DNA of 10,524 bases from a virus (lineage: Duplodnaviria; Heunggongvirae; Uroviricota; Caudoviricetes): IMG/VR virus record IMGVR_UViG_2609459794_000002, positions 1-10,524 of that record. One strand, written 5' to 3'. Below the pieces are notes generated by a model. That model did not search any database. It saw only the letters and a program-made list of their open reading frames with translations, and had not been told where the DNA came from. This document shows positions 3,120 through 10,524 of the stretch, in pieces (within the stretch, counting starts at the first letter, position 1; the number at the start of each line of letters is the position of its first letter). A program made the position numbers and the translations under genes.

Positions 3120-3363
3120 CAGATGATAATTATTATCATTTTGCGGGTCCTTTCCGGCGATCCGACAGGTTACGGGGCGGCGACCTCGCGGGTTTTCGCT
3201 ATTTATGAAAATTTTCCGGTTTAAGGCGTTTCCGTTCTTCTTCGCCGTAACTTAATGTTTTTATTTAAAACACCCCCTGAAAAGAAAGGAAACGACAGGT
3301 GCTGAAAACGGGCTTTTTGGCCTCTGTCGTTTCCTTTCTCTGTTTTTGTCCGTGGAATGAACA
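3120..3363. other. cos: Lambda-type cos site (cosQ-cosN-cosB), with the cosN 12-nt cohesive-end sequence GGGCGGCGACCT at 3175-3186
   Basis: The sequence ...GATCCGACAGGTTACG|GGGCGGCGACCT|CGCGGGTTTTCGCTATTTATGAAAATTTTCCGG... matches the lambda right-end/left-end junction as I recall it. Nu1 starts about 190 bp downstream, as in lambda. Confidence 0.8.
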
Positions 3364-3883
3364 ATGGAAGTCAACAAAAAGCAGCTGGCTGACATTTTCG
3401 GTGCGAGTATCCGTACCATTCAGAACTGGCAGGAGCAGGGAATGCCCGTTCTGCGAGGCGGTGGGAAGGGTAATGAGGTGCTTTATGACTCTGCCACCGT
3501 CATAAAATGGTATGCCGAAAGGGATGCTGAAATTGAGAACGAAAAGCTGCGCCGGGAGGTTGAAGAACTGCGGCAGGCCAGCGAGACAGATCTGCAGCCA
3601 GGGACTATTGAGTACGAACGCCATCGACTTACGCGTGCGCAGGCCGACGCACAGGAGCTGAAGAATGCCAGAGACTCCGCTGAAGTGGTGGAAACCGCAT
3701 TCTGTACTTTCGTGCTGTCGCGGATCGCAGGTGAAATTGCCAGTATTCTCGACGGGATCCCCCTGTCGGTGCAGCGGCGTTTTCCGGAACTGGAAAACCG
3801 ACATGTTGATTTCCTGAAACGGGATATCATCAAAGCCATGAACAAAGCAGCCGCGCTGGATGAACTGATACCGGGGTTGCTGA

Positions 3884-3909
<26 letters not shown>
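3364..3909 (+). CDS. nu1: Terminase small subunit Nu1
   Basis: 181 aa, MEVNKKQLADIFGASIRTIQNWQEQGMPVLRGGGKGNEVLYDS..., near-identical to lambda gpNu1 as recalled, with the N-terminal winged-HTH region. Lambda-like overlap with A. Confidence 0.95.
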
Positions 3910-6890
<2,981 letters not shown>

Positions 6891-6966
6891 AACCCTTGCT
6901 GCGTCTGGAATGTCGTTTTCCATGCTTTTGATGACCGTTCATCACCCTTCCAGTTTTTCGCGGTTT

Positions 6967-7020
6967 TGTGTATTGCAATGTGTATTGCAAATTGGCGATC
7001 GGGATGGGTGTGTATTGCAA
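6967..7020 (+). repeat. Three direct copies of TGTGTATTGCAA (6967-6978, 6979-6990, 7009-7020) immediately upstream of the integrase gene
   Basis: Read directly: two perfect tandem 12-mers plus a third copy 18 bp downstream, ending 18 bp before the int ATG. Confidence 0.85.
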
Positions 7021-7038
7021 ATCTCTTGAGGGCTTTTA

Positions 7039-8280
7039 ATGGCTATTGAAAACAAACTCAGTGACAAACTGTTAAAGAGTCTTGTCGGAAAACGGCAGGA
7101 CAAACAAAAAACAATAGCGGATGGGCGCGGGTTGTCTGTGCGTGTAAGCATGGTTGGGGGGATCAGCTTTGTTTTTTACTATCGTCTTGGTGGCAGGGAA
7201 TCCCCTCCGGTATGGCTTACACTTGGTCGCTATCCTGACATGTCTCTTGCAACGGCCAGGCGCATGCGTGATCAGTGCCGTGAATGGCTGGCTGAAAATC
7301 TGGACCCCCGCAGGCAAATAAAACTTGCTGCCGAAAAAACTATGCAACCAGTGACCGTAAGGGATGCGCTGTTTTACTGGTACGACAATCACGCCACAAC
7401 AGCCAGAAAAGAGCATGAATATTTAATAAAACGATTTGAAAAGCATATCTTCCCCTATATCGGTGATATGGCTATAGAACAGTGCAAATTACACACATGG
7501 CTTACCGTCTTTGACAGGATCAAAAAAAATGCGCCTGTTATGTCTGGTGCAATTTTTCTTGATATCAAACAGGCGTTGCGTTTTTGTCGCGTCAGGCAAT
7601 ACATCGCGTGCGATCCCTTTGGAGATATTAACGTAAGTTATGTCGGGCGCTCATCCGGTATAAGGGATCGCGTTCTTAATATCAATGAAACCGCTGATGT
7701 ATGGTCTTATGCTTACGGTAATAATTTGCTAACTCTGTCATCAATATATAACCGAAGAATAATGGTTATCTGCCTGGTGTTTGGTTGCCGACAGCAGGAG
7801 GCGAGGCTATCCACCTGGGACGAATGGGATTTAAAAAACTGGGTATGGACAGTCCCAAAAGAGCACAGCAAAAACAAGGAGGCTATAGTAAGGCCTGTTC
7901 CTGACGGAATAAAACAATGGATCGTTAATCTTTACGCAGAAACAAAAAATCGCGGTTATGTTGTCGGTTGTGCTTTGCAAAGGGCGACAATAACAGGGGC
8001 TGCAAACAGAATATGCAGGCGTCTTGGTCATGATACTAATGGCTTGTGGTGCATACATGATTTCAGGCGCACATTTTCCACTACGCTTAATGATATGGGG
8101 GCGGATCCTTATATTGTCGAACTTCTTTTAGGTCATAAAGTGAAAGGGGTTGCTGGTGTTTACAATAAAAGCAGGCATATAAAGAAAAAACTTGAGGTGC
8201 TTAATATGTGGGTTAATTACCTTAATACGATAGCAGGATTTAACAACAACGTTATCGAGCTTAATAAAGAGGTGGTGTGA
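7039..8280 (+). CDS. int: Tyrosine recombinase / phage integrase (P4-like family)
   Basis: 413 aa. N-terminal arm-binding-like region (IADGRGLSVRV...FVFYYRLGGRE...LTLGRYPDMSLATARRMRDQ...LDP). C-terminal catalytic signatures: IHDFRRT (His-x-x-Arg), LLGH, and a Tyr in GVYNKS. GAGGG Shine-Dalgarno 7 nt upstream. Confidence 0.9.
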   Translation: MAIENKLSDKLLKSLVGKRQDKQKTIADGRGLSVRVSMVGGISFVFYYRLGGRESPPVWLTLGRYPDMSLATARRMRDQCREWLAENLDPRRQIKLAAEKTMQPVTVRDALFYWYDNHATTARKEHEYLIKRFEKHIFPYIGDMAIEQCKLHTWLTVFDRIKKNAPVMSGAIFLDIKQALRFCRVRQYIACDPFGDINVSYVGRSSGIRDRVLNINETADVWSYAYGNNLLTLSSIYNRRIMVICLVFGCRQQEARLSTWDEWDLKNWVWTVPKEHSKNKEAIVRPVPDGIKQWIVNLYAETKNRGYVVGCALQRATITGAANRICRRLGHDTNGLWCIHDFRRTFSTTLNDMGADPYIVELLLGHKVKGVAGVYNKSRHIKKKLEVLNMWVNYLNTIAGFNNNVIELNKEVV

Positions 8281-8281
8281 T

Positions 8282-8539
8282 ATGGCAATTTATTCTCTTG
8301 TTGATGAAAACGATTTGCGCACAATGAAGGACATTGATCGGTTCATTCGTGAAAAAGAGTGCATAGCACTTACCACGCTGGCAAACTCAACACGCTGGAA
8401 AATGGAGCAGGCAGGTAAATTCCCGCGACGTATCAAGATCGGTGAACGTGCTGCAGGGTATCGACTTTCAGAGGTTCAGGCATGGATCCGTGGTGAGTGG
8501 CATCCTGGGTGGAAACCTGGAAAAACAAAACAGCAATAA
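8282..8539 (+). CDS. alpA: AlpA-family transcriptional regulator / excisionase-like protein
   Basis: 85 aa starting 1 nt after the int stop. LANSTRWKMEQAGKFPRRIKIGERAAGYRLSEVQAWIR fits the AlpA / MerR-like excisionase HTH pattern. Confidence 0.75.
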   Translation: MAIYSLVDENDLRTMKDIDRFIREKECIALTTLANSTRWKMEQAGKFPRRIKIGERAAGYRLSEVQAWIRGEWHPGWKPGKTKQQ

Positions 8540-9912: not shown

Positions 9913-10003
9913 CGAAAGGATTGTTGAAATACAAAGAGCAACGCCCCGCAGTGCTGGGAACACATACGGGGCGTCTAACCAACAACGTAAACTAGGAGCC
10001 GTT

Positions 10004-10177
10004 ATGGTTGCTGTAAATCATATACCACACCTTGTACACACACAAACGGCCTTTGTGTGGCGTTTTCTGGCACTGAGTGCCGGAGAATCTCAAATCATCC
10101 ACGTAACCGCCTGGACGGAACGCGAAGCGCGTAGCCGTTGCCCGTCCGGTTGTGTTGCTGTATTCGCTGCAAAAATC
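10004..10177 (+). pseudogene. 5' part of an unknown gene, apparently interrupted by the IS1 insertion
   Basis: ATG at 10004 preceded by AGGAG with a 5-nt spacer. The ORF (MVAVNHIPHLVHTQTAFVWRFLALSAGESQIIHVTAWTEREARSRCPSGCVAVFAAKI) runs straight into the IS1 terminal inverted repeat at 10178. Confidence 0.4.
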
Positions 10178-10524
10178 GGTAATGACTCCAACTTATTGAT
10201 AGTGTTTTATGTTCAGATAATGCCCGATGACTTTGTCATGCAGCTCCACCGATTTTGAGAACGACAGCGACTTCCGTCCCAGCCGTGCCAGGTGCTGCCT
10301 CAGATTCAGGTTATGCCGCTCAATTCGCTGCGTATATCGCTTGCTGATTACGTGCAGCTTTCCCTTCAGGCGGGATTCATACAGCGGCCAGCCATCCGTC
10401 ATCCATATCACCACGTCAAAGGGTGACAGCAGGCTCATAAGACGCCCCAGCGTCGCCATAGTGCGTTCACCGAATACGTGCGCAACAACCGTCTTCCGGA
10501 GCCTGTCATACGCGTAAAACAGCC
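10178..10524 (-). mobile_element. IS1 insertion sequence, partial (right end inward; continues past the window edge)
   Basis: Begins with the IS1 terminal inverted repeat GGTAATGACTCCAACTTATTGATAGTG. The minus-strand translation is the InsB C-terminus (...[109 protein letters not shown]). Confidence 0.9.
10193..10524 (-). CDS. insB: IS1 transposase InsB, C-terminal part (N-terminus outside the window)
   Basis: The minus-strand frame is continuous from the window edge through the track ORF 10193..10459. Sequence recognised as IS1 InsB. Confidence 0.8.

Follow-up and report, generated by a model that had tools for sequence, protein, structure and literature searches.

The 12-bp repeat that occurs three times directly upstream of the integrase gene (int) in the window, the whole 10,524-nt stretch of DNA that we analysed, most probably provides arm-type sites, located in the P' arm of attL, at which the integrase encoded next to it would dock with its N-terminal domain (Arm-DNA-bind_3). 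The repeats fix the attL end of a satellite and identify this element as a helper-embedded PICI (HE-PICI), the class of satellites that lie in lambda-type late genes and are co-oriented with them (Tommasini, Mageeney and Williams 2023, NAR Genom Bioinform 5:lqad036, PMC10111431). The motif, its reading as arm sites and the biology of these elements have been known since 2023 (PMC10111431), and it is also already in the literature that such a satellite splits the portal gene of its helper, which can make heads only once the satellite has excised. What we add is modest and testable: a fifth site in one subclade, an extension of the doublet architecture beyond HE-PICIs with lineage-specific 12-mers, and a natural reshuffling of AlpA and Int that points to Int as the reader of the repeats, a question left open where the motif is discussed in PMC10111431.

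The repeat array and the satellite it borders

Three exact copies of TGTGTATTGCAA were found on the + strand of the window, at 6967-6978, 6979-6990 and 7009-7020, just as the preliminary description had reported them (two perfect tandem 12-mers and a third copy 18 bp downstream). Copies 1 and 2 are in tandem with a period of 12 (2.0 copies and 100% matches over 6967-6990 in Tandem Repeats Finder), an 18-bp spacer (6991-7008) separates them from copy 3, and a repeat search showed 14 nt (TGTGTATTGCAAAT) to be common to copies 2 and 3. When up to two mismatches were allowed, TGTGTATTGCAA matched the window seven times against an expectation of 1.38, and none of 200 shuffles reached seven matches. 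Copy 3 ends 18 nt ahead of the int start codon; the likely ribosome-binding site (GAGGG, 7027-7031) and the ATG at 7039 occupy 7027-7041 on the + strand. The distance from the end of portal similarity at 6838 to this ATG measured 200 bp, close to the first estimate of roughly 190 bp. We do not regard the small open reading frames over the repeats (6853-7020 and 6942-7151, minus strand; 6862-7029, plus strand) as genes, since conservation does not extend beyond the 12-mers and the region differs by indels between relatives. An RNA element is not supported either: neither strand of 6600-7300 matched an Rfam family.

The window is a lambdoid late region interrupted by an int-alpA-Bro satellite. 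All on the + strand, the helper packaging genes Nu1 (3364-3909) and terminase A (3884-5809) are followed by W, by an N-terminal fragment of the portal gene (6009-6838) and then by int. The portal fragment, a lambda-family cognate of B, represents the satellite's target gene; it matches Pfam Phage_portal_2 over profile positions 102-242, and the similarity breaks off at position 242. The identity block AAGGCGAT (6831-6838, + strand), the crossover region, is common to attL and attR in two intact relatives, L001 and L002, and in L001 it is present at both junctions (20432 and 31330). Because this core sits 129 bp upstream of the first repeat, the repeats belong to the attL end, and the earlier proposal that they mark the functional end (att region) of an integrative element is borne out, with the core at 6831-6838.

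The int gene (7039-8280, + strand) encodes a tyrosine integrase of 413 aa with the Pfam domains Arm-DNA-bind_3 (residues 7-94, E = 3e-17), Phage_int_M and Phage_integrase; 3ju0 and 3jtz are relatives of its N-terminal domain in the PDB. As alpA (8282-8539, + strand; 85 aa, Phage_AlpA, 5e-14) directly follows the int stop codon, the two genes probably form one operon. A single base lies between this stop codon and the alpA ATG (8278-8284), which leaves alpA without a promoter region of its own here; hpt-type PICIs differ in having a DUF6387 gene and a gap between int and alpA. A Bro-N gene was recognized by Pfam downstream of alpA. The satellite is then truncated by IS1 (10178-10524, minus strand): the sequence reads as the IS1 end ggtaatgactccaacttattgat from 10178, and similarity to L001 ceases at 10177. 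When the IS1 junction (9950-10400) was searched in complete E. coli genomes, no record was found to carry it, the matches being those underlain by IS1 annotations.

An intact copy of the element is present in E. coli strain 401651 (NZ_CM129040.1; L001), where ~10.9 kb carrying int, alpA, bro, icd-like, primase, ssb, capsid E-like, decoration, HTH and terS genes splits the portal gene, whose C-terminal half resumes immediately after the element, at 31327. The same junction is present in 61 complete E. coli genomes, and the elements encoding the Int relatives of Edwardsiella tarda (88% identical) and Serratia quinivorans (77% identical) occupy the same portal-gene site in the same orientation. 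The features of an HE-PICI are therefore all found: insertion within, and co-orientation with, a lambda-type late gene; the identity block aaggcgat near position 241 of Phage_portal_2; and int and alpA followed by Bro-N in the window, with the primase and late zones seen in L001. The satellite is a published HE-PICI of site group B:Phage_portal_2:241, which the supplement of PMC10111431 lists with the identity block 'aaggcgat'.

Three minor observations concern the helper and its relation to the satellite. The portal fragment and its L001 counterpart have identical translations apart from W94*, an in-frame stop at 6288-6290 that L001 lacks; together with the IS1 at 10178, this stop suggests that helper and satellite are both decaying in the source genome. 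The helper cosN region (GGGCGGCGACCT, 3143-3208) is 100% identical over 66 bp to positions 29508-29573 of L001, a stretch between the satellite HTH gene and the satellite Nu1-family terS, indicating that the satellite carries a copy of the helper cos site. Finally, positions 801-1987, including a KilA-N/ORF11CD3 gene (1237-1734), have no counterpart in the L001 prophage; since the flanks match L001 at 94% and 98.9%, the helper prophage differs by a module at this place.

The doublet in both arms of attP

A doubled motif, tgTGTATTGCantgTGTATTGCa, has been described as occurring twice per HE-PICI attP, in the same orientation: one doublet lies 81 +/- 2 bp upstream of the centre and the other 132 +/- 2 bp downstream (PMC10111431). 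Because motif, placement and site group coincide, repeats 1 and 2 (6967-6990) are the P'-arm doublet already described for this element group; relative to the account of the motif in that paper, the sequence, orientation, position and site group are the same, and so is the element type, an int-alpA-Bro-primase satellite that runs in the direction of the late operon.

As the window ends in the IS1 that begins at 10178, it does not include the P arm of its own copy, and the P-arm data are those of L001 and L002. Both relatives carry a tandem doublet at the far end, where the preliminary description had proposed looking for the same 12-mer: near-copies CGTGTATTGCAG and TGTGTATTGCGA at 31234-31257 in L001, and two exact copies at about 20209-20232 in L002, each ~70-75 bp ahead of the attR core. 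A doubled TGTATTGC is present in both attP arms, the first TGTATTGC of the P' arm 138 bp after the first core base (in the window) and the P doublet 94 bp before the core (in L001 and L002). In the rebuilt attP, the distance from the P to the P' doublet was 232 bp in L001 and L002, 235 bp in L058, which uses the capsid E site, and 233 bp in L061, which uses the CLP protease site. The motif is thus repeated in both arms of attP, far from the core and unlike the core, as is characteristic of arm-type sites.

We aligned the attL arm of E. coli, Edwardsiella, Serratia and Erwinia and found 32 of the 36 repeat columns to be invariant versus 47 of the 181 other columns, ten of these 47 being supplied by the core; the doublet at 6967-6990 accounts for 22 consecutive invariant columns. 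Homologous integrase loci, a comparison that had been suggested at the outset, accordingly carry the conserved 12-mer in other genera. A second block of the P' arm, GTCGTTTTC...TTGATGAccgtTCATCA (6908-6946, + strand), is partly invariant in the same alignment and may bind an accessory protein, AlpA and IHF being the candidates; a homologous GTGTTTTCATGCTTTT block was found in the P' arm of an hpt PICI. Inside the block lies a perfect 6-bp inverted repeat, TGATGA-ccgt-TCATCA (6929-6934/6939-6944), which is kept in Edwardsiella and Serratia and is likewise a candidate AlpA/IHF site.

A scan of genome contigs with an Int peptide pattern yielded no relative and was replaced by a DNA pattern for the doublet. 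Applied to 185,579 species genomes, this pattern gave 51 matches, 14 of them in Enterobacterales: eight directly before an int start, four resembling P arms and two unclassified. The Erwinia endophytica Int (P0005) locus, L052, was recovered in this way. The other ~37 matches, in unrelated phyla, resemble chance 12-bp tandem duplications and were set aside.

From this geometry, we infer the following arrangement. In the excised element, the doublet at 6967-6990, as two putative Int arm-type half-sites, and the matching P-arm doublet would flank the core at a distance of 232 bp from each other; the four N-terminal domains of an Int tetramer would occupy the four half-sites, with the C-terminal domains on the core, as in heterobivalent integrases such as lambda Int. 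Lambda attP has the arm-type sites P1, P2 and P'1-P'3, and its heterobivalent Int tetramer bridges arms and core. The present attP resembles it: each arm contains short direct repeats well away from the core, tandem ones in the P' arm, and the integrase has a small N-terminal domain as their likely reader. It differs in the period of the repeats (12 bp instead of about 10-11 bp), in the arm domain, which is Arm-DNA-bind_3 of the P4/CP4 type and belongs to another Pfam family, in the transcription of int away from the core, which places the P' sites in the 5' control region of int, and in its target, which is a phage late gene and not a chromosomal site. The initial suggestion that the repeats are integrase arm-type sites is supported by their presence in both arms, by their conservation, by their co-variation with the Int N-terminal domain (below) and by the published reading of the motif (PMC10111431). 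In the literature on these elements, we found no experiment on binding by the Int N-terminal domain or on a need for the repeats in recombination.

Int and AlpA as candidate readers

The doubled motif is called unique to HE-PICIs in its published description (PMC10111431). This holds for the sequence, whereas the doublet architecture is common to hpt-type PICIs and vB_KppS-Ant; because these PICIs are not helper-embedded and share the architecture with other sequences, it is not unique to HE-PICIs. These sister PICIs carry 12-bp tandem doublets in both arms, ~233 bp apart, and the P' doublet ends 14-23 nt before the int start. The hpt PICI doublet GGTGTATCACT was found at four loci (L056, L060, L062 and L064) and contrasts with TGTGTATTGCA of the portal:241 group; in the hpt-site PICIs of E. 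coli, Enterobacter and Salmonella, the 12-mer is GGTGTATCA(C/A)T. A further doublet, TGTATAAACA, is shared by the packaged element vB_KppS-Ant (L063/L066), the attP of which is contiguous in its record, and a Serratia PICI (L065). Candidates for fis-site PICIs were rejected as such: P0023 is a CLP-site HE-PICI, P0057 and P0080 are hpt-site PICIs, and P0076 is a PICI whose site is unassigned.

Among these elements, the integrase and AlpA have been reshuffled. The AlpA proteins of L056, an E. coli hpt PICI, and L066 are 98% identical, and identical across the helix-turn-helix and wing; the Int N-terminal domains of the two share 64%, and their doublets differ. Between L065 and L066, AlpA is 79% and the Int N-terminal domain 77% identical, and the doublet is the same. 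The sequence of the site therefore co-varies with the integrase arm domain in these sister PICIs (L056, L064, L065 and L066) and does not track AlpA, which favours Int as the reader in a comparison of four elements outside the HE-PICI group that extends to TGTGTATTGCAA by homology of architecture only. Within HE-PICIs, Int and AlpA are not separable in this way because both are conserved (66% for the Int N-terminal domain and 65% for AlpA). Between site groups that share the motif and differ in the core, the Int N-terminal domain is 66% identical, compared with 50% for the rest of Int.

Excisionases of the AlpA family commonly bind tandem direct repeats, as do lambda Xis and KplE1 TorI, and the repeats could accordingly be sites for AlpA as an excisionase/transcription factor that bends the arms for excision and/or activates int-alpA. 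We consider this unlikely, although TorI has sites in attL (PMC2951348), the P' arm is the only upstream control region that alpA has, AlpA is well conserved among HE-PICIs, and the possibility was left open by Tommasini et al. in their account of the motif (PMC10111431). In addition to the nearly identical AlpA proteins with different doublets described above, an excisionase normally has its sites in one arm only, but the doublets are present in both and at fixed distances; the TGTGTATTGCAA motif is missing from the internal promoters of the element, which AlpA would be expected to activate; and in EcCICFT073 the activity of Pint was unchanged by AlpA (PMC6092414). Assigning the repeats to AlpA would also leave the Int arm domain with no conserved repeat to bind.

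The binders proposed alongside Int arm domains and AlpA include 'some unknown DNA binding protein' (PMC10111431), and the repeats might in principle be bound by a host protein or by another protein of the element. The E. coli elements, however, use three different 12-mers, and the existence of three motif classes in one host species argues against a host factor as the reader; as for another element-encoded protein, int and alpA are the only genes common to the integration modules compared. We regard such a binder, together with the idea that the third copy is a neutral local duplication (below), as highly improbable.

Control of int and the third copy

It was also conceivable that the repeats serve int chiefly as a promoter or operator and have no role in recombination, because each unit ends in TTGCAA, which equals the -35 hexamer TTGACA at four of six positions, because the array is directly upstream of the int ribosome-binding site, and because the third copy resembles an added operator. 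Against this, the same doublet recurs at the opposite end of the element, beyond the last gene, with nothing left there to be transcribed; no -10 partner was seen by eye at a workable spacing, and a scan of 6700-7200 for sigma-70 promoters and terminators predicted nothing; and the doublets of the sister elements lack TTGCAA. A purely regulatory array therefore has very little probability. Only 11-23 nt separate the end of the doublet from the int start in relatives, and any int promoter must therefore overlap the doublet or lie upstream of it. Alternatively, because int-alpA is co-oriented with the late operon, its transcription may be read-through from the helper late operon; read-through of satellite genes from the helper is discussed in PMC10111431.

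An operator array controlling int, which the preliminary description had offered as the alternative to integrase arm sites, is compatible with arm-site binding and is not opposed to it. Any promoter of int would have the P' sites between itself and the ribosome-binding site; Int bound to them would therefore be expected to damp int-alpA transcription, and the repeats, besides their likely role as arm-type sites, probably damp int expression also, although the empty sigma-70 scan of 6700-7200 counts against this step. A parallel is KplE1 (CPS-53), in which attL overlaps the intS promoter and IntS arm-type sites by the -10 box result in negative autoregulation (Panis et al. 2010, PLoS Genet 6:e1001149, PMC2951348); the directionality factor TorI also binds in attL (PMC2951348). 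The layout of core, arm sites and int start is alike in the two systems, whereas binding and regulation were shown by experiment for KplE1 and are predicted from sequence here. KplE1 differs further in its tRNA-gene target, in a directionality factor gene that is apart from int and in unrelated site sequences. P4, whose integrase is of the same family with an N-terminal arm domain, provides another parallel: the work of Pierson and Kahn in 1987 reportedly placed repeats on both sides of the core beside an outward-facing int gene. P4 Int is a distant relative, however, its repeats have another sequence and its target is a tRNA-Leu gene. In P4, Int and Vis both lower int expression (PMC2951348).

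The third copy distinguishes the portal:241 subclade, the only one in which it was found: L002, L003 and the window have it at 12/12 and L052 at 10/12. The other HE-PICI groups examined (L007, L008, L015, L021, L025, L036, L047, L058 and L061) lack it; in these, the doublet is followed after 11-20 nt by the int ribosome-binding site and start codon. The account of the motif in PMC10111431 has four half-sites and makes no mention of a fifth corresponding to 7009-7020, which is specific to the site group here. Its absence from most HE-PICI groups means that the third unit is not essential for the clade, as would be expected of a neutral local duplication; the unit is nonetheless 12/12 in three genera and 10/12 in the fourth, while the 18-bp spacer diverges, which is not how a neutral duplication behaves. 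The length of this spacer is held at 18 in all four genera (E. coli, Edwardsiella, Serratia and Erwinia) and its sequence is variable. The retention of the unit and the fixed spacer length suggest that the unit is under selection, as is its distance from the doublet.

The third copy would then be an extra site that the portal:241 subclade has acquired, as a fifth arm site or as a further operator. We propose, tentatively, that this fifth half-site is a functional addition: it might act as a lambda-like fifth arm site, with integration and excision using different subsets of sites, or as an extra Int operator over the int-alpA leader. Equally tentative is the accompanying suggestion that the doublets, with three classes of 12-mer that track the Int N-terminal domain and a constant spacing of ~233 bp, could constitute a specificity code for the Int arm domains of Gram-negative PICIs. 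If the proposal is correct, an operator at 7009-7020 would make the repression of int-alpA more stringent in the face of read-through from the helper late operon. In L058 (9945-9987), of the capsid E site group, an extra near-copy, TGTGTGTTGCAA, was observed 5 bp upstream of the P' doublet and not downstream of it, and additional units may thus have arisen independently in different groups.
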